From Verrucomicrobiota bacterium (GTDB lineage Bacteria > Verrucomicrobiota > Verrucomicrobiia > Limisphaerales > AAA164-E04): DNA of 64,000 bases. Shown here in pieces: positions 17,598 through 35,341 of the stretch; positions within the stretch are counted from its first letter, which is position 1; the number at the start of each line of letters is the position of its first letter. The notes below the pieces were generated by a model. It was given only the letters and a program-made list of their open reading frames with translations, had not been told where the DNA came from and did no database searches. The position numbers and the translations under genes were made by a program. The stretch is taken from assembly GCA_047947115.1 (NCBI GenBank), contig CP170459.1, positions 2,656,001 through 2,720,000 of the forward strand, read 5' to 3'.

Positions 17598-18731
17598 TTA
17601 CTGAAACAACTGTGGCGCGAATGTGTTCAGATACTGCCGCCAGACAATCCAAGTGTGTGCGCCTTCGCCTTCTTCGTAGACGACGTCGAACTTGTGTTTT
17701 TTGAACATCTCCACAGTGGCGCGTGAGGTTTCCACCAGGAAGTCATCTTTGCCGGTGGCGAACCAGAATAGTTTTAGGCCGTTTTTAAGTTCCTTGTTGT
17801 CGAGGATTGACTTGTGACGTTCTTCAAATGAGGGCCCCTGTTGCGGGCGGTTGGGATTGGGGATGATTCCGAAGACGCCCGAACTGTAAACTCCAAGATA
17901 GGCAAACTTTTCAAGGTGCGGGATGCCGACATTCAATGTTTGTGCTCCTCCCATGGATAATCCTGCAATGGCGCGACTGTTTCGGTTTGTTTTTACGCGT
18001 TAGTTTTTCTCAATGTAGGGCATGACGTCGTTGACGAAATCCTGGGAAAATTCATCCGGTCCGCCGAACATGCGGGCGCCTTTGTGACCGGCGGGCATGA
18101 CGATGATCATGGGTTTGGCCTTTCCAGCGGCGATCAGGTTGTCGACGATGAAACCGGCGCGACCGACGGTAGACCAGGAATTGTCACAGTCACCAGCTCC
18201 ATGCAGCAAGTAGAAAACCGGGAATGTGCCTTCACCTTTCTGGTAACCCGGAGGAGTGTAAACATGCATGCGCCGAAACCGCTTGAGGGACGACGAGTGA
18301 TAGGTGATCTCTGCCACAGCTCCACGAGGCACATCCTGCGTGTCCATCCATTCAGATCCTTCAACCCCCACCAGACTCCAGGTGTTGTTGTTGGATTCAC
18401 TGGTTGACGGGTTGCGCGGGTTGATGACCGAAACACCGTCGACGTTGAAATTGTATCGATAGTAGCCCGGGGCGACGTCCAGAGTGGTCTCCCAGATGCC
18501 TTCATCATTTTTAGTCATGTCCGCTCCCCGACCTACGCCTGGAATGTCGCCCGCGGAAAGGCTGACTTCCTTTGCGTTGGGAGCCAGAATGCGGAAAGTG
18601 ACCTTGCCGTCATTGACTTCAGGGGAGGTGACTTGCGGTCCACGGCCAAAGCCTTGGGCTTCAATTTGAGTGTATGGTTGGAATGCTGCCAGCAGCGCGG
18701 CGGTCGCAATCATTGAGAAGATTCGTTTCAT
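17598..18731 (-). pseudogene. CBM48-like plus CE1-type esterase with an in-frame TAA at 18000-18002
   Basis: VTFRILAPNAKEV, RRMHVYTPPGY, YLLHGAG, then IEKN*RVKTNRNSRAIAGLSMGG (GxSxG) and GAHTW in the same frame. Confidence 0.85.
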
Positions 18732-18919
18732 TCTTGTTTTTTGAGTTGGATGGTTGTTTGTTGATGGAAAATTGATTTGGATGGATCTTAAGCCTGCTGC
18801 CATTAAATCTTGTACCACAAGACCAGTGAGGAGAAGAGCAACGGCCTGTAAATTACTATTGAATCAACGGAGTTTTGCAAAATTATACTCGCCCTGGTTG
18901 AAGGGCAAGGAGAATCATA

Positions 18920-18990
18920 CCATTGCAGCTTGAAAGGGATTCCAAAGCATTGAGGTTTGAAGTGGGGGTAAGTCGGAGCTTACCCCTCCG
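18920..18990 (-). repeat. Dispersed 71-bp intergenic repeat, copy 1
   Basis: Reverse complement CGGAGGGGTAAGCTCCGACTTACCCCCACTTCAAACCTCA...GCTGCAATGG aligns without gaps to 49857-49927. Confidence 0.8.
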
Positions 18991-19086
18991 GTTAAGGATT
19001 TCTAATTTTTGGACTGCGCCCTCTCCGCTGCAGAAAGAGAAATGTGGTTTGCAAGAACGGATCAAATTTTCTATTACTTATACTCA

Positions 19087-19593
19087 ATGAGTAGGTTGCA
19101 GTTGGTTTTGATTCTGGTGCTGTGGATGATTGGTTCACTGACGGGCTATGCTCAGGGGAGAATTCAGCTCAGCAACATTGGCAAGGCGCTTATCACTGTA
19201 GATGGAACTCCTGCTCCAGGTGGAACTCTGGTGCAATTAGCCACCGAGTCAGGTGATTTTGTCGGTCGGCAGGTAAAGGTATTAGAGGTAGGTTTTTTTG
19301 CTGCTGGAACCACAACACTTGAAGGTGTCGGTGGGCTTACTACATTGTTGCTGGCAGCCTCAGCTGATGAGGGGCATACCTGGTTTTATTCCGATCCCTT
19401 TGACGTGTTGTTGAACACTGGTCCGGTCCTTGGAGCTCCGGATGCAAGCATCCCAAGCACCTTTTCAGGCGTGAACATTGTCACCATTCCTGAACCCTCT
19501 TCGTTTGCGCTGCTTGGGGTAGGTGGGCTGACTGTCTTACTCTTTCGAAGAAAGTGTGTCGCTTTCCCATCCACCGCCAAGAGCTTTGATTAA
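19087..19593 (+). CDS. PEP-CTERM sorting-domain protein
   Basis: Signal peptide (…TGYAQG); C-terminal IPEPSSFALLGVGGLTVLLFRRK. Confidence 0.9.
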   Translation: MSRLQLVLILVLWMIGSLTGYAQGRIQLSNIGKALITVDGTPAPGGTLVQLATESGDFVGRQVKVLEVGFFAAGTTTLEGVGGLTTLLLAASADEGHTWFYSDPFDVLLNTGPVLGAPDASIPSTFSGVNIVTIPEPSSFALLGVGGLTVLLFRRKCVAFPSTAKSFD

Positions 19594-20994
19594 TCCGATG
19601 TTGGCGATGTGATGTTGGGCCTGTGCCTGGGCTTGTCGTGTATCGGTTTGATGGCGGCCCGATTGTGCCTGGAGCCATTCCAGCTTGCTGATGGCACCGG
19701 CTTGGAACAGCTGTTGAGCTTTGGCTGCGGTGGCTTCGGCGGCATTTTTTGCTTCCCTGGCCTGCTGAGATTGGTCGGCTCGATATCGGATGTTGGAGAG
19801 GGAGGTTTCCACGTCTCGGATGCCGTTCAACACCGCCAGGCGATAGGTGGCGACCGCTTCTTCGCGTGCTGCGCGGACTTGTCTGGCTTTCTTTGAAATC
19901 AGGCCGATGCCGGTTAACGGCAGGCTGACACTCGGGCCGATGGACCAGGTGGAACTATCCGAGGAGAAAAGGCTGTTCATGTCCCGGCTCAGTTGTCCGC
20001 CCTGGCCTGTCAGGGTGACGCTTGGATAGTAGGCGGCCACAACCACTCCAAGTTCGGCATTGCGCGCTGCGACCAATCGTTCGGCTGCGGCTATGTCGGG
20101 GCGTCGCTCCAATAAATCCGCCGGTAATCCGGCAGGGATGACCGGGGGATGGGTTGTTGGTTGGGGCGTGTCGAATTGAAAAGAGTCTATACCTGCGGGT
20201 TCTCCGAGCAGCAGCGCGAGTGCGTGGGTGAGTTCTGCTCGTTGACGTTTGACTTCCGCGCGTGCTGCTTGTTGGGTGGTCAGGTTGATCTTGCTTTCGG
20301 ATAGCATTGCTTCCGAAATGGTCCCTGCTTCGAATCGTTGCTGATTCAGTTGGTGAGCGGTTTCCTGGTCGGCAACGATTTGTTCGAGGTTCGATTGTTG
20401 TGTGTCCAATGCTCGAAGCAGAAAATATTGGCTGGCAACGTCGGCTGTCAAGGTCAGGAGCACTTGTTGATAGTCCGCCGCACTTGCCTGAGTGGCGGCT
20501 TCGGCTGATTCCACCATGCGCCGAATTCTTCCCCATACGTCGATTTCATAAGTCATGTCCAGTCCGAGGTCGAATCGATGGATCCGGGTCGAGGGAATAT
20601 CAACAGGGACAGGCGTGGGCAGGTTGCCGGAGGTGCGTTGCCGATCATAGGCAGGATTCAACCTAATGTCCGGGAAAAGTGACGCCCAGGTTAATTGAGT
20701 CATGGCACGCGCCTGGTCCACTCGTGCGACGGCAGCTTGAAGTGTTGGATTTGCCTTCAAGGCGCGTTCTTCCAGTTCATTCAGGTTCGGATCGTTGAAG
20801 CATTGCCACCAATCGCCTTTCGGGAGATGGTCGCTAGGCTTGGCTTCCTGCCAGCTCCATTGTGCGGGGACCAGATCGCCCACATCCGGTTTGTGGTAAT
20901 CAGGTCCAACGGGTCTTATACATGCGGTCAGAAGAGTTGCGCACAGGATGAAAATGCTGCGGGTTGATTTCTGGATGATTGAAGGTTTGGACAT
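19537..20994 (-). CDS. RND efflux outer-membrane lipoprotein (NodT/OprM family)
   Basis: Lipobox LLTAC, VGPDY, WWQCFNDP, YEIDVWGR, LLERRPDIAAAE, LIKALGGGW. Confidence 0.93.
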   Translation of the reverse strand: MSKPSIIQKSTRSIFILCATLLTACIRPVGPDYHKPDVGDLVPAQWSWQEAKPSDHLPKGDWWQCFNDPNLNELEERALKANPTLQAAVARVDQARAMTQLTWASLFPDIRLNPAYDRQRTSGNLPTPVPVDIPSTRIHRFDLGLDMTYEIDVWGRIRRMVESAEAATQASAADYQQVLLTLTADVASQYFLLRALDTQQSNLEQIVADQETAHQLNQQRFEAGTISEAMLSESKINLTTQQAARAEVKRQRAELTHALALLLGEPAGIDSFQFDTPQPTTHPPVIPAGLPADLLERRPDIAAAERLVAARNAELGVVVAAYYPSVTLTGQGGQLSRDMNSLFSSDSSTWSIGPSVSLPLTGIGLISKKARQVRAAREEAVATYRLAVLNGIRDVETSLSNIRYRADQSQQAREAKNAAEATAAKAQQLFQAGAISKLEWLQAQSGRHQTDTRQAQAQAQHHIANIGLIKALGGGWESDTLSSKE

Positions 20995-21006
20995 GGCGGC
21001 GTCGAG

Positions 21007-24000
21007 TTAGCGTTGCTGGATCTTCGAACCGGTTTCTTTGCGACGCCATTGAATCATGTCATCAAACAGCGTGTAGAAAACCGGAATCGCCAGCAAGGTG
21101 AGAAGGAGTGAAAGCATCTGACCGCCGACGATGACGCCTGCGGTGGCATTGTTGAATGCCGCTCCGACACCTTTGGCCAGCATCATGGGAATCATGCCCG
21201 CAACAAATGCCAGGGTGGTCATCAGGATAGGGCGGAGTCGCTCGCGATTGGCTCGCATGACCGCATCGTGTCGCGGTAGTCCCTCTTGACGAAGTTGGTT
21301 GGTGTGGCTGATTTGCAGTACACCGTTTTTCTTGACCATGCCGAAAAGGACGAGGATGCCGAGCATGGAGAAGATGTTGATCGATTGCCCAAACACGATC
21401 AGTGACAGGATGGCGAAGGGAAGAGTGAGCGGCAGTGAGAGCAGGATGGTAAATGGGTGCAGCCAGCTTTCAAACACGGCGGCCAGGATCAGATACATAA
21501 ACACCAAGGCCAGCACGAACGCGGTCATGAAGGCTTTGCCCGCTTTCTTCATTTCCTTCGTTCGACCAGTGATGCCGGTTGTGAAGCCTTTGGGGAGTCC
21601 CGCTGTTTCCACTGCCTGTTCGATGCCCTCAAGGATTTGCGTTTCACCATAGCCCGGCGCGTTGTTGGCGGTGATGGTGACTTGACGGCGTCGGTTGAGG
21701 CGATTGATTTGAGAGGGACCTTCCGCTTCCTCAAGCTCGACGATGTTCGGGAGCGCCACCGGGGGGCCAGCCATGGATGGAACGGAGAGTTTGGAGAGTA
21801 CTTCCTGATTGGAACGATCCGCTTTCAATGCGCGAACATGAATGTCGTACTGCTCTCCGCCTTCACTAAAAGAGGAAGCGGTGACCCCGCCGACCAAGAG
21901 TCGAAGCGTGGTGGAAAGATCAGCGACGTTGACGCCCAATAGTCCCGCCCGGCTGCGATCGATCCTGGCGAGGATTTCAGGTTTGCCGGATATCAAGGTG
22001 CTATCCAGGTCCCGGACACCAGGGATTTGTTTGGCTTCCTCCATGACGGCTTCCGTGGTGCGGGTGAGTTGATCCAGGTCCGGGCTGGCGATGTAGTACT
22101 GCACATTGGCTTCCGACATGCCCGAATTGAAAGGGGGCACTGAAAATACCGTGATACGCCATTCCTCCGGGTACTTGGGGACGATTTGCTGACGGACACG
22201 ATCCATGAGAATTTGCTGTGAGGCATCTCGCTCGTCAGGAGGTGTCAGGCGAACAAAGATGCCGGCTGCATTGACGGTTTGCTGAAGGTTGTCACCGATG
22301 GTGGTCAGGGTGGATAATACGCCGGGGAGTTTGCGAATATCCCGGGCAACGCGTTCGGCGAGCAGATCGGTTGCCTCCAGCGTGGATCCCTCCGGCGCAC
22401 GCAGGTTGATCACAAACTCAGCTTCCTCAACCGGGGGGAGAAAATCCTTTTTAACCCGCTGCATCAAGAAGGGCAGAGATCCGAGCAATGTCAGGCAAAC
22501 CGCCACGACCACCCAACGATGGTTCAGGGAGAATCCAAGCAGCTTCATGTACACTTGCTCAATGGGGCGGTAGACAAGATTGACCCCGTGTTCCAGGGCG
22601 CGATCCCAGGGGCCTGGTTTTTCGTGTCGATGAAACAGCTTTGCGGCGAGCGCCGGAGCCATGGTGAAACTGACCAGCATGGAAACGCCGATGGCAAACG
22701 CCATCGTCATCCCGAAGCTCCTGATAAACATTCCGACAATGCCTCCCAGAAATGCAATGGGAACAAACACGGCCAGAAGCGAAAGCGTGGTCCCCACCAC
22801 GGCCATTCCAATTTCCCGGGTGCCTTCAATGGCTGCCTGAAAGGCAGATTCGCCTTTTTCTTCCATGCGACGGAAGATGTTTTCCACGACGATAATGGCG
22901 TCGTCGATGACGATGCCGACCGCCAGAGCAAGGGCGATGAGGCTGATTTGATTGATCGTCAAGTTTTGCACCCACATCACCCCGAAGGCCGCAATGATGG
23001 AAGTGGGAATGGACAAGGAAGAGATGATGGTGGCGCGTGAATTGCCCAGAAACAACAACACGACCAACGAAGCGAAGATGGCTCCCAGAATCAAATGTTC
23101 TTTGACGGCATGGACACTGGTCCGGATCACACGGGAATAGTCTCGAACGACAGTTGTTTCATAGCCGTCAGGCAACAGGTCCTTGATTTCTTCCAGACGT
23201 TGCACCACGGCGTCGACGACCGCAATCGTGTTGGCTCCCGATTGCTTTCGGATGGAAAGTATGACGGATGGGATTCCATTTTGAGAGGCTGCTGTTCTTG
23301 GTTCCTCCTCGCCATCCACGACCTCGGCCACGTCTTCCAGTCGGATTAACCTTCCGGCTTGAGGACGGATTACAAGTTGTCTGAGTGCCTCGATGGATTC
23401 CACTTTTCCGACGACTCTCAATCCGGCTTCCATGGCCTGATCTTTGACGTTGCCCGCGGGGATCTGGATGTTTTGCGCTTTGATCGCCCGCATCGCATCG
23501 ATGGCGGTCAATCCGAACGACTGCAATCGCATGGGATCCAGTTGAACATTGATCTGGCGTTTGCGTCCCCCGACGATGCGGACCTGACCGACGCCAGACA
23601 CATTTTCCAATTGTCGCCTGAGAGTCTTGTCTGCGAACTCGGTGATCTCTTTGACGCTTGCATCGGCGGATATGGAAATATTGATGATGGGGGCGGCATC
23701 GGGGTCGAGTTTTTCAACGATGGGAGCGTCCACATCCTCCGGCAGATCGGGAATGATCCGGGTGATTTTTTCACGGACTTCCTGTGCGGCCACATCAATG
23801 TCCTTCTCCAGTAAAAACGTGACCAATACAAGGGATATGCTTTCACTGGATGTGGAGCGGATTTCGTCGATGTCACTGATGGTGTTGATGGCCTCTTCGA
23901 TCCTGTCGGTCACTTCCGTTTCAATTTCATTAGGTGTGGCCCCGATGAGGCTTGTGGTGATGGCGACGGTTGGGAAGTCGATTTTGGGGAACCGATCCAC

Positions 24001-24102
24001 CTGGAGTTGGGTGTAACCAAAGATGCCGACCACCACAAACACCAGCACTATCACACTGGCCAGCACGGGGCGACGCACGGAAATTTCGGATAACCACTGC
24101 AT
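21007..24102 (-). CDS. RND efflux permease (AcrB/MdtBC family)
   Basis: 1031 aa; SVRRPV, GIVIDDAIIVVENI, VKKNGVL, RLRPILMTT. Confidence 0.95.
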   Translation of the reverse strand: MQWLSEISVRRPVLASVIVLVFVVVGIFGYTQLQVDRFPKIDFPTVAITTSLIGATPNEIETEVTDRIEEAINTISDIDEIRSTSSESISLVLVTFLLEKDIDVAAQEVREKITRIIPDLPEDVDAPIVEKLDPDAAPIINISISADASVKEITEFADKTLRRQLENVSGVGQVRIVGGRKRQINVQLDPMRLQSFGLTAIDAMRAIKAQNIQIPAGNVKDQAMEAGLRVVGKVESIEALRQLVIRPQAGRLIRLEDVAEVVDGEEEPRTAASQNGIPSVILSIRKQSGANTIAVVDAVVQRLEEIKDLLPDGYETTVVRDYSRVIRTSVHAVKEHLILGAIFASLVVLLFLGNSRATIISSLSIPTSIIAAFGVMWVQNLTINQISLIALALAVGIVIDDAIIVVENIFRRMEEKGESAFQAAIEGTREIGMAVVGTTLSLLAVFVPIAFLGGIVGMFIRSFGMTMAFAIGVSMLVSFTMAPALAAKLFHRHEKPGPWDRALEHGVNLVYRPIEQVYMKLLGFSLNHRWVVVAVCLTLLGSLPFLMQRVKKDFLPPVEEAEFVINLRAPEGSTLEATDLLAERVARDIRKLPGVLSTLTTIGDNLQQTVNAAGIFVRLTPPDERDASQQILMDRVRQQIVPKYPEEWRITVFSVPPFNSGMSEANVQYYIASPDLDQLTRTTEAVMEEAKQIPGVRDLDSTLISGKPEILARIDRSRAGLLGVNVADLSTTLRLLVGGVTASSFSEGGEQYDIHVRALKADRSNQEVLSKLSVPSMAGPPVALPNIVELEEAEGPSQINRLNRRRQVTITANNAPGYGETQILEGIEQAVETAGLPKGFTTGITGRTKEMKKAGKAFMTAFVLALVFMYLILAAVFESWLHPFTILLSLPLTLPFAILSLIVFGQSINIFSMLGILVLFGMVKKNGVLQISHTNQLRQEGLPRHDAVMRANRERLRPILMTTLAFVAGMIPMMLAKGVGAAFNNATAGVIVGGQMLSLLLTLLAIPVFYTLFDDMIQWRRKETGSKIQQR

Positions 24103-24113
24103 GCTCGAATCAA

Positions 24114-25340
24114 TCAGGGTTGAGCGAGGCTGGCCTTCATGCCGTCCTTGGGTGGTAGATCGGATGTGATGATCACGGATTCACCCTCTTGAACCCCTTT
24201 GCGGATTTCGACCCATCCATCTGCCGCTACTCCCTTGTCAATCAGTCGTTCCTCTACTTCTCCATTCTTTAAAACAAATGCCGATGTGTTGGAACCATTT
24301 TTACGCAGAGCTTCGGTTGTTATGCACAATACATTCTGGTGGGGAAGCTGGATGTCTGCTTCGGCGAAATAGCCGGGTTTGAGGCGTTGATCGTCATTGT
24401 CAACAAGTGCTTCGACCACCAGATCCCGCGCAGTTGCTCTGAGAGCACCGCTAATGTAGGCGATGACTCCCGAAAATGTTTCGTCTTCAAAAAGGGCTGT
24501 TTTGAAATAAACCTTCTGTCCGGTGGTGATGAGTGAAGCGGCTGTTTCGGGAACGTTCAGGACGAGGCGCAACTTGGAAACTTCCACCAGATGAACCACC
24601 GGAGCAGGGGGCATCACAAACTCACCCGGTTGCACGAACCGTTCCACTACTTGACCCGAAAATGGCGCGCGAATCACTGAATCGTCGACCGCCTTGCGTG
24701 CCAGGTTTCGTTGTGCCACGGCTGAATCAAGTGCGGCTTGTCGGGCTACGCGTTCCGCCTTGAGTTTCTGAAATTCCGAATCCGATATGGCTTTGGATTT
24801 TGCAAGCGGCTCGAAACGCTCCAACTCGGTGGTGGCCAGAGCCAGCTGTGCTTCGGTGACGGCCACCATGGCCTCCGCCTCCCGGAGTGTGAGTGCCGCG
24901 TTGGTAACATCGACTTCCGCCAGGGGATCTCCTTGATCCACCTTGGAACCTCGTTCCACGTGCAGGGCCGAAATCTTTCCGCTTGTGTTGGCCGCTACTC
25001 TCGCTTCCAGGTTTCCTTGTAGTTGTCCGGTGACATGGAGGAAGCGTGGCATGGATTGGATGGATGACGGCATGACCGTTACTCTGAGAATACTCATGGA
25101 AACATCCTTTGACGGCGCTCCAGTTGCTTCCAAGTCCTCCTTGTTTCCTCCGCATCCGGTTCCGTTCAGCATCATCAACACCAACAACAACAGCCAAAAC
25201 AGCTCCAAGGCAAAGCACGTTTTGCGTCCGTTGTCGGTCGGATACGAGCTTGGTTGTGGTTGATCAGATGGTCGGTTCATGAGTGGGGCGAGCCTGTCAT
25301 CAAGGTCCATTGTTGTAACGTTGCTCCCCATTAGTGGCAT
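24114..25340 (-). CDS. RND periplasmic adaptor subunit
   Basis: VERGSKVDQGD, IRAPFSGQV, LKPGYFA; start uncertain. Confidence 0.9.
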   Translation of the reverse strand: MPLMGSNVTTMDLDDRLAPLMNRPSDQPQPSSYPTDNGRKTCFALELFWLLLLVLMMLNGTGCGGNKEDLEATGAPSKDVSMSILRVTVMPSSIQSMPRFLHVTGQLQGNLEARVAANTSGKISALHVERGSKVDQGDPLAEVDVTNAALTLREAEAMVAVTEAQLALATTELERFEPLAKSKAISDSEFQKLKAERVARQAALDSAVAQRNLARKAVDDSVIRAPFSGQVVERFVQPGEFVMPPAPVVHLVEVSKLRLVLNVPETAASLITTGQKVYFKTALFEDETFSGVIAYISGALRATARDLVVEALVDNDDQRLKPGYFAEADIQLPHQNVLCITTEALRKNGSNTSAFVLKNGEVEERLIDKGVAADGWVEIRKGVQEGESVIITSDLPPKDGMKASLAQP

Positions 25341-25448
25341 GAGCTCTTGCTGGGTGGAAGTGAAAAATGCCTTAAGGAGGCTCTATTTAGATTAATTTTT
25401 TTTAATGTTTAATTTAGCCAAAGTTTAAGGTTGATGTGCGATAGTTGA

Positions 25449-26993
25449 ATGGTGACGGGAAACAATCGATCTCAATCAAGACCTTCAATGACCGGTGCGG
25501 CCGCCAATCCTGCTGTATCCGAACCTGCGGTTACTCGCTTGATAACACGGCGCGTGTTGTTTTTGAATGGCAATGAAACACAGCGGCCTTATCGGGTGGC
25601 ACCTCTGGGGATGGCTTTTGTTGCTTCCAGTGTGCGGGATTCTGGGAGAGAGGTTCGTTTCATGGATCAGTTGCAGGGTTTCATGGCTCTGCGACGGCTG
25701 GTTCGGGTCCTGCGTCGCTGGCGTCCGCAGGTGATCGGCCTGGGGATCAGGAACCTGGACAACTCCGATTATCACGCCTTTCATTCGTACCTGAGCCTGC
25801 CAGCCAGATTGGTTGCTCTCATTCGCCGGGAACTCCCTGAGGCAACGATCGTCCTGGGTGGTTCAGCCGGTACGGTGGATCCGGAACGTGTCTTGGATGC
25901 GGTTCCGGCGGATCACCTGATTCTCGGGGAAGGGGAAGAAGCCATGGTTCGCTTGCTGAAAGCCAAAGAACGAGGTGAAAAAGTGTCAAACGTGGTGGGG
26001 GATCCTGTCCTTGGCGGTCCGCATCGTGTTGTGGAAACGGAAAAACTGACCCCTCCCGGATTATATCAATGGACGCCTATGGCTTCCTATCTGAAAGGGG
26101 ATGCGGGTTACCCGGTGCAGACCAAGCGTGGGTGTCCGTTGAAGTGCTCCTATTGTACTTACGGTCGCATCGAAGGAAAACGTTACCGAAAATTGCACCC
26201 CGAAAGGGTCGCCGATGAAATCCAGGGAGCGATGGAACATGGCATTCGTGATTTTGAATTCGTGGACAGCACTTTCAATCTGCCTGTCAAACATGCGGTG
26301 GATGTGGTTGAAACTCTGCTCCGCCGGGGATTGACTGCTAATTATCACGGAACAGGCATCAATCCGTCCAAATTGCCGGACGAACTTCTGGAGGGAATGC
26401 GTCGGGCCGGGTTTCGTCAGGTCATCCTGACTGCCGAATCCGCGTCCAGCAGCATGTTGAAATCTTACGGCAAGAACTATACACTACCCGCACTCGTCAA
26501 CGCGGCGGATCAGTTGAGACGACATCGTCTTGGCGCACTGTGGGTGTTTCTTTTGGCTGGACCGGGTGAAACCGAAACCACCGTTGAGGAATCGCTATCC
26601 TTCATTGCCGAACACGTGCGTGCTCCCGATGCCGTCTATATCACTTCCGGTATTCGGATATACAAGGGCAGCCCCATGGCGGATGCATGGGAAGAAGGGC
26701 GTTTGGCTGCGGCAAGTTTAAGGACTTCAGCTGACAAGCATGCGACCTTCTATTATTCGGAACACACACAGCCTGATTGGTTGGAAGCCAGATTGAAAGC
26801 GTTTCAGCGTCAACATCCGCACGTCATGCTGTCCTGTGAAGGACATGGCTGGATGACGCAACTCGCTCTCAACATGCTTCCCTGGACCGGGCTCAAAAAA
26901 CCTTACTGGCAATACCTTGGCTGGCTGAATCGGTTGCGACGTCCCACTTCGTTTCTGCCTCCTTTCAGGCCCGCTTCTCAACCTGTCGGATGA
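25449..26993 (+). CDS. B12-binding domain radical SAM protein (class B-like)
   Basis: N-terminal PLGMAFVAS...VIGLGIRNLDN...VLGG...GEGEE; QTKRGCPLKCSYC (CxxxCxxC); FVDSTFN; GPGET. Confidence 0.9.
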   Translation: MVTGNNRSQSRPSMTGAAANPAVSEPAVTRLITRRVLFLNGNETQRPYRVAPLGMAFVASSVRDSGREVRFMDQLQGFMALRRLVRVLRRWRPQVIGLGIRNLDNSDYHAFHSYLSLPARLVALIRRELPEATIVLGGSAGTVDPERVLDAVPADHLILGEGEEAMVRLLKAKERGEKVSNVVGDPVLGGPHRVVETEKLTPPGLYQWTPMASYLKGDAGYPVQTKRGCPLKCSYCTYGRIEGKRYRKLHPERVADEIQGAMEHGIRDFEFVDSTFNLPVKHAVDVVETLLRRGLTANYHGTGINPSKLPDELLEGMRRAGFRQVILTAESASSSMLKSYGKNYTLPALVNAADQLRRHRLGALWVFLLAGPGETETTVEESLSFIAEHVRAPDAVYITSGIRIYKGSPMADAWEEGRLAAASLRTSADKHATFYYSEHTQPDWLEARLKAFQRQHPHVMLSCEGHGWMTQLALNMLPWTGLKKPYWQYLGWLNRLRRPTSFLPPFRPASQPVG

Positions 26994-27015
26994 ATTTCAC
27001 TCCATTTAAACAACC

Positions 27016-27642
27016 ATGAAAAAAACTTTAGAAGTATCCTTATCCAAAAGACCGATTCTTGCTCTTGCCTTCATGCTGATTTTTACCGGCTGGAATGCCG
27101 TGAATCTCCGCGCAGAGGGTTCCATTGCATACAGGGGAGAATTGAAAGTGCGTTTTTTCGCGACCTCCACCTTGCATGATTTTGAAGGTGAAATCCCAAC
27201 GATCAAGCTGGAAGCCAGTCGCTTGGTCATGGATGCGCCGTCACCTGATGATCGATGGGAGGTGATCTCCAAGGTAGGGGTTAAGACTTTGACCACGCAC
27301 CATGAAAAGCGCGACGTCAAGATGCTGGAGATGTTCAAAGAAGATCGGTTTCCGGTTTTTCAGCTCCAGGTCAACGATCCCATCCAACCGTCAACGGATG
27401 ATGCCCCTGCCAGTATGCCTGTGATGGTGACGATACTGGGTAAGTCGGTGAAGGTGGAAGGACACATCAAAAATTGGTCCGATGCGGAAGGCAAGGTTTC
27501 ATTTCGATTGGAAACGGAACTGTCGCTAGGGGCATTCGGTCTGGAAAGGCCTGGAACGGCTTTTGGTTTGATTCGGGTCGGGGACAAAGTGCGTGTGGAA
27601 GCTGACGTTCATGTTGTCAGAAAGGAGGAGAGTCATGACTGA
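27016..27642 (+). CDS. Periplasmic YceI-family lipid/polyisoprenoid-binding protein
   Basis: Signal peptide; FFATSTLHDFEG, LTTHHEKRD..M, RFP, FGLERP...IRVGDKVRV. Confidence 0.75.
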   Translation: MKKTLEVSLSKRPILALAFMLIFTGWNAVNLRAEGSIAYRGELKVRFFATSTLHDFEGEIPTIKLEASRLVMDAPSPDDRWEVISKVGVKTLTTHHEKRDVKMLEMFKEDRFPVFQLQVNDPIQPSTDDAPASMPVMVTILGKSVKVEGHIKNWSDAEGKVSFRLETELSLGAFGLERPGTAFGLIRVGDKVRVEADVHVVRKEESHD

Positions 27643-28822
27643 TTTTGACGTGGTGATCGTCGGAGCCGGACCGGCCGGATTGTTGTGCGGTCGTATGTTG
27701 GCTGAGGCCGACTACCGTGTGTTGATCCTGGAAGCGCGGTCAAAAGTGGAACACAAGCTCTGCGGTGCCTATCTTTGCCCTTCGGGAGTGCGACTGCTTG
27801 AAGAGGCGGGGCTTTTGCCCGCGATGGAGCAGCGATTTCACCCCGTGCATGGAATGATTCTGCACAGTCCAAACGGGCAGTCGGTGACATCCTATTTTCC
27901 CGAACCACCCAGGAAAAGCCCGAGCCGGCTGCACCATGGCCTGTCACTGGATCGCAAGGCATTCGACACCTTTCTGGCAAAAGAATACTTCGGCGCCGGA
28001 GGGCATCTGGAAATGGGGCAACGCTTGAAGAACATGCATCTCCATGAAAATGGGTGGGAACTGGAAACCGATCAACATCGTCGGATTCGCACCCGTCTGT
28101 TGATCGGCGCAGATGGACGACGCTCCTTTGTGGCCAAACGACTTGGGTTGTCCAAACGATCCAAATCCAAGCGAATGGCAGTGCATGCGTTTATGCCCTC
28201 CATGCAGATGAATCCACGCATGGGGGAAATGCATTTGTTTGATGCCGGAGATTACATCGGATTGAATCCGCTGGACCAGCACATGGTCAACGTGTCCTGG
28301 GTGTGTGATCCGGCGACATTGGAAGGCCGTTCTGCTGAGGAAGCATTGAAGCGGAGAATGAGTGAATCCAAGGCATTGTTGAGCCGTTTTGACCTGTCAC
28401 AGGAACTGGAACTCATGACGACCTCTCCGTTGACACACCGGGTGAACCGGTGTTACGGACCTCGCAGTGCCTTGGTCGGCGATGCCTCCGGGTTCGTGGA
28501 TCCGTTGACAGGTGAGGGGATTTTTGTAGCTCTTGCGACAGCCCGCATGATTGCCTCCCGACTGGTCGCTCAACCCGATTGGGTGATGGGGGATCATATT
28601 GTTCCCATCCTGCAGTCCTACCACCGCGAGCGTAAAAAGGCATTTGCTTCCAAGAAAAGAGTGTCCATGGCCTTTCAGCGGATCATACGATCTCCCCGTG
28701 TCTGCAATGCCATTCAACGATATCTTGCCGCTCGTCAGCAGCGTGCGGACTCATTTATCGGATTGGTTGGCAACGTTTACCAACCACTGAACGGTTTGTG
28801 GCACATGGTCACAGCTTCCTGA
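27635..28822 (+). CDS. FAD-dependent oxidoreductase/monooxygenase (geranylgeranyl reductase-like fold)
   Basis: DVVIVGAGPAG, KLCG, LDRKAFD, IGADGRRS, LVGDASGFVDPLTGEGI; GGAG RBS overlapping the yceI end. Confidence 0.88.
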   Translation: MTDFDVVIVGAGPAGLLCGRMLAEADYRVLILEARSKVEHKLCGAYLCPSGVRLLEEAGLLPAMEQRFHPVHGMILHSPNGQSVTSYFPEPPRKSPSRLHHGLSLDRKAFDTFLAKEYFGAGGHLEMGQRLKNMHLHENGWELETDQHRRIRTRLLIGADGRRSFVAKRLGLSKRSKSKRMAVHAFMPSMQMNPRMGEMHLFDAGDYIGLNPLDQHMVNVSWVCDPATLEGRSAEEALKRRMSESKALLSRFDLSQELELMTTSPLTHRVNRCYGPRSALVGDASGFVDPLTGEGIFVALATARMIASRLVAQPDWVMGDHIVPILQSYHRERKKAFASKKRVSMAFQRIIRSPRVCNAIQRYLAARQQRADSFIGLVGNVYQPLNGLWHMVTAS

Positions 28823-28864
28823 GAAATCACATTCACAACATACATCACTTATCAAATTCCATTT

Positions 28865-29953
28865 ATGGTTCAATTGAACAACTTTCCCTCCCGCCCCATG
28901 CACGGTACTTACCTTAACCGTGTGGCAACTGCAGTGCCTGATTATGAATGTCATGAGACGTTTCTGAATGGACTCCCCACCATTCTTCCTCCTGAAAAGG
29001 TGAAAAGGCTGCAGCGAGTGGCTTCTCAGAGTCAGATTCAAAAGAGGTATTCGGTCCTCAACCCTCTCATTGGTGAAGCGGATCAGGATGCCTATTATCG
29101 ACCAGGGCGGTTTCCGTCCACCGGGGATCGCATGCAGACATATCGAAAAGAAGCACTGCCGCTTGCATCTCGCGCCATACGTGATCTGAATTTGTCAGAG
29201 GACGAACTGGAGGGTGTGACTCACCTGATCGTCACTTCCTGTACCGGTTTCTATGCTCCAGGGCTGGACATTGAGATCATACGGGAATGGAATCTGTCTC
29301 CGAGCGTGCGCCGGTTGTTGATCACTTACATGGGGTGTTACGCGGCCATCTCCGGATTGCGCGCCGCGCAGGATATCGTTCGGTCTCACCCGGAGGCAAG
29401 GGTGCTGATGGTGAATCTGGAATTGTGCAGTCTGCATCTTCAGGAATCGGCGCCCATGGATCGGTTGATCAGTTTTCTTTTGTTCGCCGATGGTTGTGCG
29501 GCCTCGCTGATCACTGCCGATGATGATGGATTTGAACTCATGGAGTTTCAATCCTCACTCGGTTTGAGTTCCCGAGATCGCATGCAATGGATGGTGGAAG
29601 ATCAGGGCTTTGCAATGACGCTGGATATCAGGGTGCCTTCCTTGATTCAGGAACTGCTGGATCGCGAAAAAGATGCCATTTTTAATCAGATGAGTCCGGA
29701 TCGGATCGGGATGTGGGCGGTGCACCCGGGGGGGCGGGCCATTCTGGATTCCATTCAATCATCATTTGATCTGAATCAATCTCTGATGGAGGCCTCCAGA
29801 GCGGTGCTCAGAGATTTTGGAAACATGTCATCAGCGACAGTCATGTTTGTGCTGGAATCGCTGCTGAAACAAAGGACAGGAACCAGGTCAGAGCCTGGAA
29901 TGGCCATGGCCTTTGGTCCGGGGTTGACCGTCGAATCCATGAGTTTTCGGTGA
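28865..29953 (+). CDS. Type III polyketide synthase (chalcone synthase-like)
   Basis: Catalytic triad in YMGCYAA, WAVHPGG and FGNMSS; VTSCTGFYAPG, ELCSLH, LFADG, AFGPGLTVE. Confidence 0.95.
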   Translation: MVQLNNFPSRPMHGTYLNRVATAVPDYECHETFLNGLPTILPPEKVKRLQRVASQSQIQKRYSVLNPLIGEADQDAYYRPGRFPSTGDRMQTYRKEALPLASRAIRDLNLSEDELEGVTHLIVTSCTGFYAPGLDIEIIREWNLSPSVRRLLITYMGCYAAISGLRAAQDIVRSHPEARVLMVNLELCSLHLQESAPMDRLISFLLFADGCAASLITADDDGFELMEFQSSLGLSSRDRMQWMVEDQGFAMTLDIRVPSLIQELLDREKDAIFNQMSPDRIGMWAVHPGGRAILDSIQSSFDLNQSLMEASRAVLRDFGNMSSATVMFVLESLLKQRTGTRSEPGMAMAFGPGLTVESMSFR

Positions 29954-30007
29954 TTCGATGCGCTTGACTTGTTGCATCCTGATTTCAAGTTCCTTTAAGA
30001 TACTCCC

Positions 30008-30703
30008 GTGAGAATTCTGCTGGCTGAAGACGAGTCCAAACTTGCCGCCTTTATTGAACGAGGTTTGAGTGAGGCCTCTTATGCCGTTGACAAGGCCGAG
30101 GATGGGGACGAGGCGCTGTGGTTTGCGGGTAACCATACCTACGATCTGGTCATCATGGATGTCATGATGCCGGGCAAGGACGGTTTTACGGTGGTCCGGC
30201 ATATGCGTCGGCAAGGGTTGGATGTGCCTGTTTTGTTTCTGACAGCTCGGGCTGAAGTCGAAAACCGTGTGCGCGGCCTGGATTCCGGGGGTGACGATTA
30301 TTTGACCAAACCTTTTTCCATGGAAGAGCTGTTGGCTCGTGTGCGCGCCTTGTTGCGTCGGCAGCGCAACCAGCAGGTCAACTTTCTCAAGGTGTCCGGA
30401 TTGGAAATGGACCTGGTGGCGCATGGGGTTCGAATCAATGGGAAAGCGGTCGAGCTGACCAATAAGGAATACGCGTTACTCGAACTGCTCGTTTCCCAGT
30501 CTCCGACACCTGTAACTAAAACTGCCATCGTCGAGAGGGTCTGGAACCAACATTTCGACTCAGGGACGAACCTGATCAATGTTTACATGAATCGGCTCCG
30601 GGGCAAAATTGCCGAAAATGGAGGCGGGCCTTTCATTCAAACCGTGCGTGGAGTGGGGTTCGCGCTGCTCCCTGAAGCCCCAGTGAACGCCCATGACGCT
30701 TAA
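30008..30703 (+). CDS. OmpR-family response regulator (CusR/CzcR-like)
   Basis: ILLAEDE, MDVMMPG, GDDYLTKPF, winged-helix ending TVRGVGF. Confidence 0.95.
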   Translation: MRILLAEDESKLAAFIERGLSEASYAVDKAEDGDEALWFAGNHTYDLVIMDVMMPGKDGFTVVRHMRRQGLDVPVLFLTARAEVENRVRGLDSGGDDYLTKPFSMEELLARVRALLRRQRNQQVNFLKVSGLEMDLVAHGVRINGKAVELTNKEYALLELLVSQSPTPVTKTAIVERVWNQHFDSGTNLINVYMNRLRGKIAENGGGPFIQTVRGVGFALLPEAPVNAHDA

Positions 30704-32054
30704 GACTCGTTTAGCCCTGTGGTACGGTGCGACTTTGTCGCTGTTATTCCTTCTGTTGCTGGCTGCTTTCAACTATGTGATTCATTGGCATTCGGTATCC
30801 GGAATGGACAGTCATCTGGACAAAACTTCCGAAAAGGTCAAAGAGATTGCCCAATTGACCCCCACCTTTGAACTACAAGAGCATGTTGAAAGCGAACTGA
30901 ATCAATACTGTGATACAGACGTGCGTGATGTGATGGTGCAGATGCACACGGAAGAAGGCGGCATGCTGTTTACCTCGCACAGTCTGAACAATCAGTTCCT
31001 GCCCGACCTTTCCGGAGCGGTCGAAGAGGGAGGGGATATCAAACGCCTCACCGTCGGGCATTTGCGGGTTTGCGAATATTACTTTTCCGATCTGCATCTG
31101 CAACTGGCGGTGGATGTGGCTTCCTGGGTGGCTCCGGCCCGTCATGTTCATCGCATTTCTGCACTTGCCGTGCCGGTCATTCTTTTCACCTGCTTGATTC
31201 TCGGCTATCTGGTCAGTTCACTCACGTTGCGTCCCTTGACACGCATTCAGAAAGCCGCAGCTTCCATCGATCTGGATTCACTCAATCAACGACTTGAAGA
31301 ACCAAGCGGCCGGGGCGAATTGAGCGATCTGTCCCGACTCTTTAATCAAATGCTTGAACGATTGGAACAGTCCTTCAAGCAAGTCCAACGTTTCACCGCC
31401 GATGCGGCGCATGAAATCAGAACGCCACTGACCGTCATGCGTCTGCAGGTAGAAAAATTGGGGCAACAGCAGCAAATCGATGATTCCACACGGGTGGCCC
31501 TGCAGGATCTCACCGAAGAAATCCTGCGATTGGACGAGGTGTTGGAACATCTGTTGGTATTGGCCAAAGCCGAGGCGGGGGTGCTGCCGTTGACGCGGAA
31601 GGAGATTGAAGTGGCACCTTTCATGGACAGCTTCGCAGAGGACGCCCAGGTGCTTTGCGAGCAGGAACAGCGAACGTTTGTGCTCAAAACAAACGCTTAC
31701 GGCAAGTGTGTCTTCGATGAATCGTGGATTCGTCAGGTTCTGTTCAATCTGCTTTCCAATGCCTTGAAATACAGCCCCCCCAATACCACCATCAGCATGG
31801 ACTCCACTTTGAAAGATCAACGTTGGATGGTTGAAATACGCGATCAGGGGCCCGGTGTTCCGGAGGATCGCCTTTCAAGTATCTTTGAACGATTTGTTCG
31901 GGCTCGACCAGAAGACATGCTCCGGTCCGGATCAGGTCTTGGGCTTGCCATTAGCAAGGGGATTGTCCACATGCATGGTGGAAAATTGATTTGCCACAAC
32001 ATTCCTTTACCTGATACCGGTTTCTGTGTTCAAATGGAACTACCACTCTGTTAG
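30693..32054 (+). CDS. Sensor histidine kinase with HAMP domain
   Basis: Two TMs, HAMP, FTADAAHEIRTPL, NLLSNALKY, DQGPG, GSGLGL. Confidence 0.95.
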   Translation: MTLKTRLALWYGATLSLLFLLLLAAFNYVIHWHSVSGMDSHLDKTSEKVKEIAQLTPTFELQEHVESELNQYCDTDVRDVMVQMHTEEGGMLFTSHSLNNQFLPDLSGAVEEGGDIKRLTVGHLRVCEYYFSDLHLQLAVDVASWVAPARHVHRISALAVPVILFTCLILGYLVSSLTLRPLTRIQKAAASIDLDSLNQRLEEPSGRGELSDLSRLFNQMLERLEQSFKQVQRFTADAAHEIRTPLTVMRLQVEKLGQQQQIDDSTRVALQDLTEEILRLDEVLEHLLVLAKAEAGVLPLTRKEIEVAPFMDSFAEDAQVLCEQEQRTFVLKTNAYGKCVFDESWIRQVLFNLLSNALKYSPPNTTISMDSTLKDQRWMVEIRDQGPGVPEDRLSSIFERFVRARPEDMLRSGSGLGLAISKGIVHMHGGKLICHNIPLPDTGFCVQMELPLC

Positions 32055-32247
32055 GTGAGCTTTTATGAAGATGTTGCGGATCTTGTTGCTTGTCAGTAGG
32101 ATGCAGGCGGTGGATTGGGGGTTGTGCGCTTGAATGCATCCTACTCGAAGTCACCGATCATGGATTGCACGGCTTGGCGAAACAGGGGCGTGTGATTTTG
32201 GATGCAAGACTGTGAATGACAAAATAAGAATCGTGAGTGACGAACCA

Positions 32248-33540
32248 ATGAGTTTAAGAGCCCTTTCATCGGGGTGGTTGGGATTTTTTCTGACTTTTTT
32301 TGGAGTTAACTTCTGGACCTGCAGTTTGCACGCGGATTCCGAAGCACGGTATCGGGTGGTTGTTTCCACTGATATTGGAGGGACGGATCCGGATGATATT
32401 CAGTCCATGGTGCATTTGTTGCTGTATGCCGATCGGTTAGATCTGGAGGGAATTGTTTCGTCCCCTTATGGGCCAGGACGTCGGGAACATATTCTGAAGG
32501 TGATTGATGCTTACGAGCTGGATCATCCTCGTTTGCTAACCCATTCCGAACGTTTTCCTTCGCCCGATACCCTGCGAGGTATCACGCGACAAGGTGCGAT
32601 CCATACACCCGGCCAGTCGGGCATTGCCGAGACGACGGAGGGTTCGGATTGGATTGTTCAGCGCGCGCGGCATCCGGATCCTCGACCCTTACATCTGCTT
32701 GTGTGGGGCGGTATTGAAGACCTGGCTCAGGCCTTGCATGATGCGCCCGATATTTTGCCAAAACTGCGTGTTTACTGGATCGGTGGGCCGAACAAGAAGT
32801 GGAGTGTCGACGCCTACAACTATATCGAACAACATCACCCCACACTGCGCATCATTGAAGCCAACGCGACCTATCGAGGTTGGTTTGTGGGGGGGAATCA
32901 AAGGTCACCGTGGGACAATGAGAGTTTTGTTCGGTTACATGTCGCCGGGCATGGAGCCTTGGGAGATCATTTTGTAAGGGCCAAGGATTCCCTGAAGATG
33001 GGCGATTCTCCATCGGTGGGCTGGTTGTTGCACGGGGATCCTGGCGATCCTTCCCAGCCAGGATGGGGCGGTCGCTTTGTGCGTATCTGGGATGACCGGA
33101 AATCAGTCTTTTATCAGCCGACCACCGAAGCGGATGTGGTGGAAGCCTTCGGTGTGACCGAATTCGTTTTACCCAAGCCGGAGGGTTACACTTCCGAACA
33201 CCGAGCCATCATGGTTTTCGATAACGGTCGACCTCCATCCGTCGGTGTGGACGAAGGCAAGGCCTTGCGATTTCGTTTTTCACCCAGAGACGCCAAGGTC
33301 TGGACTTATGTGATTGAAAGTGATTTTCCAGCGTTGGATGGAATGTCCGCAAAATTGGATGCTCAACCTGCTTCCATTGAAAAAACCAGCCGCGCTTCGA
33401 AACGCCATCCCAACTGGTGGATTGATGATCCGGATCCGGATCAGGCGGAAGGCGTACATCCCGGAGCCAGAAGTGTCAATCGATGGCGCGAAGATTTCCT
33501 GTCCGATTTTGCCAAACGCCTGGATTGGTGTTTACAGTGA
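32248..33540 (+). CDS. DUF1593 (nucleoside hydrolase-like) secreted protein
   Basis: RVVVSTDIGGTDPDDIQSMVHLLLY, VWGG, MGDSPS, GWGGRF, DFAKRLDW. Confidence 0.85.
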   Translation: MSLRALSSGWLGFFLTFFGVNFWTCSLHADSEARYRVVVSTDIGGTDPDDIQSMVHLLLYADRLDLEGIVSSPYGPGRREHILKVIDAYELDHPRLLTHSERFPSPDTLRGITRQGAIHTPGQSGIAETTEGSDWIVQRARHPDPRPLHLLVWGGIEDLAQALHDAPDILPKLRVYWIGGPNKKWSVDAYNYIEQHHPTLRIIEANATYRGWFVGGNQRSPWDNESFVRLHVAGHGALGDHFVRAKDSLKMGDSPSVGWLLHGDPGDPSQPGWGGRFVRIWDDRKSVFYQPTTEADVVEAFGVTEFVLPKPEGYTSEHRAIMVFDNGRPPSVGVDEGKALRFRFSPRDAKVWTYVIESDFPALDGMSAKLDAQPASIEKTSRASKRHPNWWIDDPDPDQAEGVHPGARSVNRWREDFLSDFAKRLDWCLQ

Positions 33541-35134: not shown

Positions 35135-35272
35135 GAAGTTTTCAATGGTGGTCACGCAGTCAGGATCTTACCGATATTTCCGCTAGTGTCAGCTATGCGG
35201 TTGTTGGGATGGCGGATGCGGTAAGGATTTCCCTCGTGAGGTGAGATGCAGGGTAGGGATATCCTAAGGTTT

Positions 35273-35299
35273 GCGCGCCGAGACGCCACGCTCTACCTG
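35273..35299 (-). repeat. Degenerate solo GTAG-REP related to the 9.4-10.1 kb array
   Basis: CGCGCCGAGACGCCACGCTCTACCTG versus the array end CGCGCCGGGGACGGCACGAACTACCTG. Confidence 0.55.
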
Positions 35300-35341
35300 C
35301 TAGGACCATTCATTCACTATTCACTATTTTAAATTCACCAT

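Follow-up and report, generated by a model that had tools for sequence, protein, structure and literature searches.

The stretch of DNA studied here, a window of 64,000 nucleotides from a Verrucomicrobiota bacterium (contig CP170459.1, positions 2,656,001 to 2,720,000), raises a question about four closely spaced genes: do a B12-binding radical SAM enzyme (rSAM), a YceI-like protein, an FAD-dependent oxidoreductase and a type III polyketide synthase (PKS) act together, and if so, what do they make? We found that rSAM-YceI-FAD-PKS is a rare, conserved and self-contained unit, 4.5 kb long, which we call the cassette. Its four genes probably act in a single pathway, with a phenolic or pyrone lipid as the product. 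For the product we favour, at a little under an even chance, a C-methylated lipid of the alkylresorcinol or alkylhydroquinone type, whose ring methyl group would be added by the B12-dependent rSAM.

An ORF check recovered nine predicted open reading frames (ORFs) between positions 19537 and 32054 of the window, each of them where an earlier interpretation of the bare sequence (the sequence-only reading) had placed it. The features, in window coordinates, are listed with the cassette genes first and their neighbours after them.

25449-26993 (probable start 25488), plus strand: B12-binding rSAM of the TsrM/TIGR04072-like clade (Pfam, NCBIfam, motifs, fold and tree)
27016-27642, plus strand: YceI-fold protein of lipid-binding type, 208 aa, with an N-terminal hydrophobic, signal-like stretch (orthologs, Atlas and fold)
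27635-28822, plus strand: FAD-dependent oxidoreductase of the geranylgeranyl-reductase-like superfamily, with CGxYLxP and EMH motifs (Pfam FAD_binding_3)
28865-29953, plus strand: type III PKS with the triad C158/H287/N320; closest solved structure PKS18 (Pfam Chal_sti_synt_N/C)
30008-30703, plus strand: OmpR-type response regulator (RR) (Pfam Response_reg and Trans_reg_C above cut-off)
30693-32054, plus strand: sensor histidine kinase (HK) (Pfam HisKA and HATPase_c above cut-off)
19537-20994, minus strand: outer membrane factor (OMF) (Pfam OEP above cut-off)
21007-24102, minus strand: RND transporter (Pfam ACR_tran above cut-off)
24114-25340, minus strand: membrane fusion protein (MFP) (Pfam HlyD_D23 above cut-off)
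19537-25340, minus strand: complete MFP-RND-OMF efflux operon, a neighbour of the cassette and not a conserved member
25310-25465, no strand: AT-rich divergent intergenic region, by a weak hint a candidate divergent promoter region (uncovered by RNA-library contigs in runs X5-X8)

The plus-strand genes (rSAM/YceI/FAD/PKS/RR/HK) are spaced by 22, -8, 42, 54 and -11 nt, the FAD gene start overlapping the YceI stop by 8 nt, and GC content is 0.53 in the cassette and its flanks alike. The PKS is a type III PKS by its Pfam scores (89.1 bits for the N-terminal and 70.9 bits for the C-terminal Chal_sti_synt domain, each with a cut-off of 27) and by its Cys-His-Asn triad, which is intact as the sequence-only reading had it. 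Similarly, the rSAM is a cobalamin-dependent radical SAM protein, scoring 53 bits against the B12-binding domain PF02310 (cut-off 32.1) and 66.4 bits against the Radical_SAM domain PF04055 (cut-off 29.5); the CxxxCxxC motif that had been picked out earlier is C229/C233/C236, invariant in 46 of 46 homologs. The YceI-like protein, previously called a periplasmic YceI, has no Pfam match of its own, PF04264 (YceI) included, and the name is supported instead by its orthologs (4 of 5 scanned in the close clade match PF04264), by Atlas, which assigns YceI at 0.94, and by its modelled fold. The best fold match of the model (predicted local distance difference test score, pLDDT, 79.9) is the polyisoprenoid-binding protein 1wub (E = 2.2e-9), and all listed fold matches with E < 1e-4 are YceI-type. 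The complete tripartite RND operon and the OmpR-type RR and HK pair following the PKS had also been read correctly, all of their Pfam domains passing.

Is this arrangement found elsewhere? Loci of rSAM relatives were taken from genomes and metagenomes; those from metagenomes were picked out by QTKRGCPL and EFVDSTFN, and the best 80 of 529 relatives were used. Motif counts from these pattern-selected loci are biased, and the unbiased counts given here are those from sets of 46 and 145 homologs. In a quick maximum-likelihood tree (without L078 and L095, which have frame problems) the window rSAM falls in a clade of 22 rows, supported by a Shimodaira-Hasegawa-like approximate likelihood ratio test value of 100, whose members are 46-80% identical to it. 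The PKS tree omits L037, and the FAD tree was made with FastTree and carries a long-branch warning. Close homologs have Verrucomicrobiota labels in their sources, which points to this phylum for the host. Collapsed at 90% identity and with two partial loci added, the close clade comprises 24 groups, the window included. Among groups with sufficient contig, the FAD gene adjoins the rSAM in 19 of 19, the YceI gene is adjacent in 20 of 21 (L038 is without it) and the PKS adjoins the rSAM in 12 of 13, or 11 of 12 excluding the window; in the thirteenth (L012-L014) a PKS ortholog of 53-54% identity lies elsewhere in all three genomes. Two orders are rearranged: rSAM-PKS-FAD-YceI in L047-L049 and rSAM-YceI-PKS-FAD in L051. 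Across 13 cassettes the pairwise distances of the four proteins correlate (Spearman 0.85-0.94), a level reached in none of 2000 permutations; this shows co-inheritance of the four proteins rather than their function. A sample of 300 order-level genomes contained a single PKS above 50% identity and a single rSAM above 50%, both of them in G462, which has an intact cassette. The cassette is rare, being found in 1 of 40 relatives and in 0 of 400 genomes of the phylum, and its flanking genes are unrelated from locus to locus. The four-gene unit proposed by the sequence-only reading is therefore conserved elsewhere, with two changes of gene order.

These counts bear on the idea that the PKS is a passenger, linked to an rSAM-YceI-FAD module that has a different substrate. 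In G440-G442 the PKS ortholog does lie apart from rSAM-YceI-FAD, and distant rSAM-FAD pairs occur without a type III PKS. We nevertheless consider this very unlikely, in view of the near-constant adjacency of the PKS to the rSAM, its retention through two rearrangements, its presence even where it is unlinked, the congruent distances and the matched presence across the 300 genomes. Searches of a plasmid collection found no close relative of the rSAM or FAD enzyme (all were below 30% identity), and viral contigs contained no PKS relative. Among proteins of 948-2705 aa there was no close-clade fusion at E = 1e-50, which is weak evidence. At L053:13-916 the rSAM match is split over two frames, by a frameshift or an assembly error.

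What might serve as the methylating enzyme of such a unit? The sequence-only reading had found no ordinary methyltransferase (MT) here. At close loci, seven MT queries (of PKS-associated and UbiE types) gave no tblastn match, nor did any of 52 flanking ORFs at 15 close loci match an MT family of Pfam (the missing METHYLTRANSFERASE); the 52 were drawn from 71 picked ORFs plus one added, leaving out regulators, pumps, one duplicate locus and several long ORFs. The window genes and scanned flanks have no Pfam family of the isoprenylcysteine carboxyl methyltransferase (ICMT, SrsB-like) type, and the cassette and scanned flanks have no acyl carrier protein (ACP), FabF or second rSAM. Among the nearest PKSs without this rSAM, an MT gene is adjacent at 13 of 14 loci, and the contig of the fourteenth ends. 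The MT-bearing loci are five plasmid loci (PKS 38-46% identical), six of seven order-level loci, most with the order YceI-PKS-FAD-UbiE-type MT (the contig of the seventh ends), and a distant second cluster in the host genome, G000, and in G008. The rSAM and an MT thus seem to exclude each other in the relatives of the PKS.

The absence of an ordinary MT holds at every close locus tested, but not genome-wide. The host genome contains a second, classical PKS-MT-FAD cluster (L104:8855-11668; C1 about 1.869-1.872 Mb), with a PKS 25% identical to that of the cassette and two transposase-like ORFs beside it; the situation in G008 is alike (L109). The MT of this second cluster could act in trans on the cassette product; in G440 and G441 there was no match to it. 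A further order-level cluster type was seen at L120-L126, consisting of YceI, type III PKS, an FAD monooxygenase of another subfamily, a UbiE-type MT and a major facilitator superfamily (MFS) gene, in many cases with a two-component pair transcribed the other way; a PKS of this type is carried by 7 of the 300 order-level genomes.

What chemistry might the rSAM perform? Its best NCBIfam match is TIGR04072, at 273.2 bits against a cut-off of 360; BzaD (TIGR04385) comes second at 137.6 (cut-off 450), and TsrM (TIGR04428) scores 78.1 (cut-off 500). We rejected membership of the rSAM in all three families, whose curated cut-offs it does not reach, so the comparison with a lipid-associated B12 radical SAM profile that the sequence-only reading had proposed gave a best match of sub-threshold score. 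Close relatives of the enzyme score 250-261 against TIGR04072, likewise below the cut-off; L017, L021 and L022 pass it, and L021 and L022 are accompanied by FabF and another rSAM instead of a type III PKS. TIGR04072 belongs to ladderane-associated clusters (PMC2649909, PMC13459092) and has RNxD and DSxFN motifs in common with the window rSAM, which differs by its score, by its separate clade of 22 rows and by the lack of a fatty-acid-synthesis context.

The closest solved structure, by sequence, by Foldseek (E = 1.6e-23) and by VIA-align (Z = 30.8, rmsd 3.2, 449 residues aligned; next family 26.4), is that of TsrM, a tryptophan 2-C-methyltransferase (PDB 6wte/6wtf), although the rSAM is only 22% identical to it and no genes for a thiopeptide or quinoline pathway lie near the locus. 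The polar mechanism of TsrM rests on Arg69 under the cobalamin (PMC9204698) and on Glu273, which ligates the unique cluster iron and blocks radical chemistry (PMC8992657). In the window enzyme R101, invariant in 46 of 46 homologs, aligns with Arg69 in a Gly-x-Thr-x-Arg motif, and T275 aligns with Glu273 (D273-S274-T275 for Asp-Ser-Glu in TsrM); the rSAM model has a pLDDT of 79.9, with low values in the Arg loop, so R101 is positioned by sequence only. Judged from these alignments, the rSAM has half of the TsrM signature, the half that it holds in common with TIGR04072 lipid enzymes, and it may still perform radical chemistry. An order-level relative (L023:8014-9219, in G024) encodes a TsrM-like rSAM with the Arg and an Asp-Ala-Glu motif, scoring 239 bits against TIGR04428, below the cut-off. 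BzaD, from benzimidazole synthesis, is described as a TsrM-like enzyme that probably methylates a Csp2 carbon, and it offers an example of a B12-rSAM acting on an aromatic ring that bears oxygen (PMC12931638), but bza and cobalamin genes are absent from the rSAM locus, and the genome gave no CobS match.

We favour C-methylation of the ring because of the exchange of MT for rSAM, the precedents of TsrM and BzaD, and the retained Arg. In the pathway that we propose, the type III PKS would first lengthen a long-chain fatty acyl starter, using malonyl-CoA, and then close it to the ring of an alkylresorcinol (or pyrone), as its family and gene context suggest; PKS18, its closest solved homolog, makes alkylpyrones. 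The FAD enzyme would then hydroxylate the ring to give a hydroquinone or quinone, a step that is unproven for the planctomycete enzyme Fdo as well. Subunit I of a heme-copper oxidase is present in 5 of 5 cassette genomes tested, and therefore O2-dependent hydroxylation is possible. Next, the B12 enzyme would methylate an electron-rich carbon of the ring with methylcobalamin as the donor, in the manner of TsrM and, probably, of BzaD. Finally, the exported YceI-fold protein would be the periplasmic binding protein for the hydrophobic product. B12 would be imported by the host: G000 has four B12-binding proteins and, at 96% completeness, no CobS match, so it probably salvages the cofactor. A phenolic lipid tailored by a B12-dependent rSAM, as in the sequence-only reading, is thus also our best reading; the export by the RND pump that was part of the same proposal is not.

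The cassette works like several known systems, yet lacks the MT that defines them. In hidABC, for hierridin B, and in a planctomycete operon, an FAD oxidoreductase likewise lies directly upstream of a type III PKS (PMC10896814, PMC8086630), but the cassette has no class I MT and has the B12-rSAM and YceI genes before the FAD gene instead. We compared the cassette with HidB, HidC and Fdo by gene layout and description; its FAD enzyme adjoins the PKS, shares motifs with the L104 enzyme and is 23-26% identical to PKS-MT-FAD enzymes in full-length matches. Hierridin is an alkylresorcinol with hydroxylation and O-methylation, and the G. maris product is C-methylated (PMC10896814, PMC8086630). The planctomycete MT-oxidoreductase-PKS operon accounts for 58 of 96 PKS genes, and the products of its PKSs were alkylresorcinols; the MT of G. 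maris probably places its methyl group on a carbon of the ring, and the role of the oxidoreductase is left open (PMC10896814). The srsABC system of Streptomyces griseus also joins a type III PKS, a flavoprotein and a methylation function, in making phenolic lipids or quinones (PMC13730376, PMC10896814), but SrsB is a membrane O-methyltransferase of the ICMT type, and the cassette flanks have none. In the text of PMC8086630 the word "radical" does not occur, in that of PMC13459092 "alkylresorcinol" does not, and the PKS and rSAM of PMC12858407 are unrelated. The literature searched, which covered main texts and few subscription papers, held no characterised cluster of this composition, in agreement with the sequence-only reading.

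Several observations weigh against ring methylation. First, the methylation of a resorcinol ring is possible without B12. Second, the replacement of MT by rSAM may have been a single event, the loci counted being kin and not independent. Third, the best profile match of the rSAM is to a fatty-acid-cluster family, TIGR04072, and the Glu273 of TsrM is Thr in the window enzyme. Among 145 homologs, the Arg69 equivalent is present in 132, TIGR04072 members included, and is therefore not diagnostic; position 275 is V in 63, T in 49, I in 20, A in 6, L in 3 and M in 2, and none of these six residues, the most frequent ones and together accounting for 143 of the 145, is Glu. Fourth, the rSAM-FAD pairing is older than the link to the PKS. 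A sister clade, whose 90% cluster members are labelled Planctomycetota, has the order FabF-rSAM-FAD-SDR-YceI (SDR, short-chain dehydrogenase/reductase; L055:1574-7632 and L056:3075-8906) and a small unknown protein; we saw no ring-forming enzyme there, and it is without a cyclase, MT or type III PKS. In a Gemmatimonadaceae clade (L060, L065, L067, L069, L070, L079, L082, L092 and L101) the operon reads DUF92-rSAM-FAD-flavin reductase-MT-START cyclase-FabF, so that FabF and a cyclase stand where the type III PKS would be, beside the same rSAM and FAD families. These cousins hold both the rSAM family and an ordinary MT, so standing in for an MT is not its sole role. The window FAD enzyme is 31% identical to those of the sister and Gemmatimonadaceae clades, and its lower identity to the enzymes of PKS-MT-FAD loci, given above, also counts against the reading.

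The same contexts make the main case for another reading, in which the cassette and lipid class are as we propose but the B12 enzyme acts as a radical catalyst on an unactivated acyl chain. It would methylate a carbon in mid-chain, form a cyclopropane or close a C-C ring, on a starter acyl-ACP or acyl-CoA or on the finished alkylresorcinol. We rate this as possible but rather unlikely. FeeM, type I PKS and FabF contexts point to acyl substrates. Two of 18 distant rSAM homologs scanned (P0230 and P0243) are fused to FeeM, which uses acyl-ACP, and 1 of 18 to an MT; another lies beside an N-acyl amino acid synthase FeeM gene (L074:3268-7295), and a 2688-aa type I PKS with NMO-like, ketosynthase, acyltransferase and ketoreductase domains lies upstream of a further one (L099:732-11464). 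The FabF and SDR genes of L055/L056, the "lipid biosynthesis" profile TIGR04072, the lack of the Glu273 that blocks the cluster in TsrM and the combination of rSAM and MT in the Gemmatimonadaceae cluster point the same way, and scarce B12 would be better justified by chemistry beyond the reach of an ordinary MT. On the other hand, FeeM products can also bear an aromatic ring, the scanned flanks of many other distant rSAM homologs showed no lipid genes, and the cassette itself lacks ACP and FabF. Moreover, MT is absent among PKS relatives exactly where the rSAM is present, and the two closest families of assigned function, TsrM and BzaD, target sp2 ring carbons. The rSAM also keeps a hydrophilic Arg below the cobalamin, where the residue is hydrophobic in the radical methylases of known structure (PMC12931638). 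Among the more distant homologs, P0230, P0243 and P0247 were noted for FeeM or class I MT fusions, and P0219, P0235, P0278, P0289 and P0328 are proteins of 1497-2331 aa with three to five tandem radical SAM domains and several B12-binding domains.

The FAD enzyme suggests a different departure from ring C-methylation, in which the PKS lipid is still tailored but the rSAM is not a methylase (catalysing, for example, a ring rearrangement, C-C coupling or oxidation), or the FAD enzyme reduces the chain, in the way of a geranylgeranyl reductase, instead of hydroxylating the ring, or both. Its top NCBIfam match is GG-red-SF, at 132 bits (cut-off 158.8), ahead of ubiquinone hydroxylases at 92.6; rSAM plus FAD is the oldest pairing in the family and persists across a change of ketosynthase type; and the planctomycete Fdo is given no demonstrated role (PMC10896814). 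Yet CGxY/FL and EMH motifs are common to the FAD enzymes of the rSAM clades and to the L104 oxidoreductase of the host's own PKS-MT-FAD cluster, and the heme-copper oxidases leave O2-dependent hydroxylation possible. As for the rSAM, non-methylating B12-rSAMs are indistinguishable by sequence, but those characterised so far are mostly methylases (PMC12931638). We consider this reading improbable, and the rSAM to be probably a methylase.

Does the divergent pump export the product, as the sequence-only reading supposed? Among 20 groups with at least 900 bp of upstream sequence, MFP and RND genes diverge from the cassette in just two, the window and its 84% relative L024. RND orthologs (59-74% identity) occur in 5 of 400 genomes of the phylum, none of the five with the rSAM; conversely, G008 and G462 have the cassette with best RND matches of only 28% and 41%. 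G440 and G441 do hold cassette genes together with an RND ortholog of 68-70%, but that of G441 sits behind a TetR/CecR regulator of its own with no cassette gene within 20 kb. We therefore rejected the RND pump as a conserved member of the cassette, and most likely it is an unrelated efflux operon. Some link to export is suggested by an unrelated AcrB-family gene directly after the PKS in L037 and L044 and by the MFS gene of sister PKS clusters, but a dedicated role of this operon as product exporter is quite doubtful; the question is separate from that of the product, and its likelihood does not add to those of the other readings.

All four cassette genes, the pump and the flanks are covered by RNA-library contigs from eight estuarine or outdoor runs (seven studies). 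With the flanks covered as well and no DNA control, this does not show transcription; it does place the cassette in estuarine and marine RNA libraries. The contigs stop at 25309 (X3, X7 and X8) and start at 25466-25470 (X5, X7 and X8), leaving the divergent interval listed above uncovered, and gene callers make the rSAM 501 aa long, which is a start at 25488. Together they are a weak hint of divergent transcription, with starts at 25488 for the rSAM and about 25280 for the MFP. The 108-bp gap of the sequence-only reading holds between the most upstream ATGs; by the weak hint of the gene call and the contig ends, the true distance is probably close to 200 bp. A sigma-70 scan of 18500-33000 found no promoter-like site within the divergent gap, with 12 promoter sites overall against 8.5 in shuffles, and 14 terminators against 17.2, numbers that tell little either way. 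The sole match in an Rfam scan of the window was a tRNA, and no cobalamin riboswitch was found. A two-component pair adjoins the cassette in 8 of 24 groups, at variable positions, and is an optional regulator. Farther out, loose RNA-library contig ends are abundant at about 18920-18992 and 35257-35347 of the window, suggesting repeated elements; a CBM48-esterase gene (17598-18818, minus strand) is broken near 18000 by one in-frame stop, with both parts in the same frame (a pseudogene or a sequence error); and two tandem Sde182 nucleoside-hydrolase-like genes (PF07632; 32134-35134, plus strand) directly follow the HK gene and were not seen at other cassettes.

The cassette is valuable mainly as a small, assayable system for an uncharacterised enzyme clade with links to ladderanes. 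The rSAM belongs to a large clade around TIGR04072, of which TsrM is the only solved relative; the enzymes behind the making of ladderane rings have yet to be identified, and members of the clade in lipid clusters have no assigned reaction (PMC13459092). Because the rSAM lies beside a type III PKS in a 4.5-kb cassette, its substrate is predictable and its reaction directly testable, and type III PKSs work in ordinary hosts (PMC10896814). If ring methylation is true, the cassette would be a B12-dependent variant of the alkylresorcinol and polyketide-quinone pathways, and its rSAM a second TsrM-like methylase, this one without Glu273; if chain modification is true, it would represent new radical lipid chemistry. 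More speculatively, and in our view not likely, the rSAM could be a true radical catalyst on an unactivated chain, the rSAM-FAD pair a portable lipid-tailoring module serving type III PKS, FabF and FeeM pathways, and the cassette the first easily expressed model for ladderane-associated TIGR04072-like enzymes. For the organisms themselves, the cassette would link a membrane lipid of B12-scavenging aerobes to the supply of B12.

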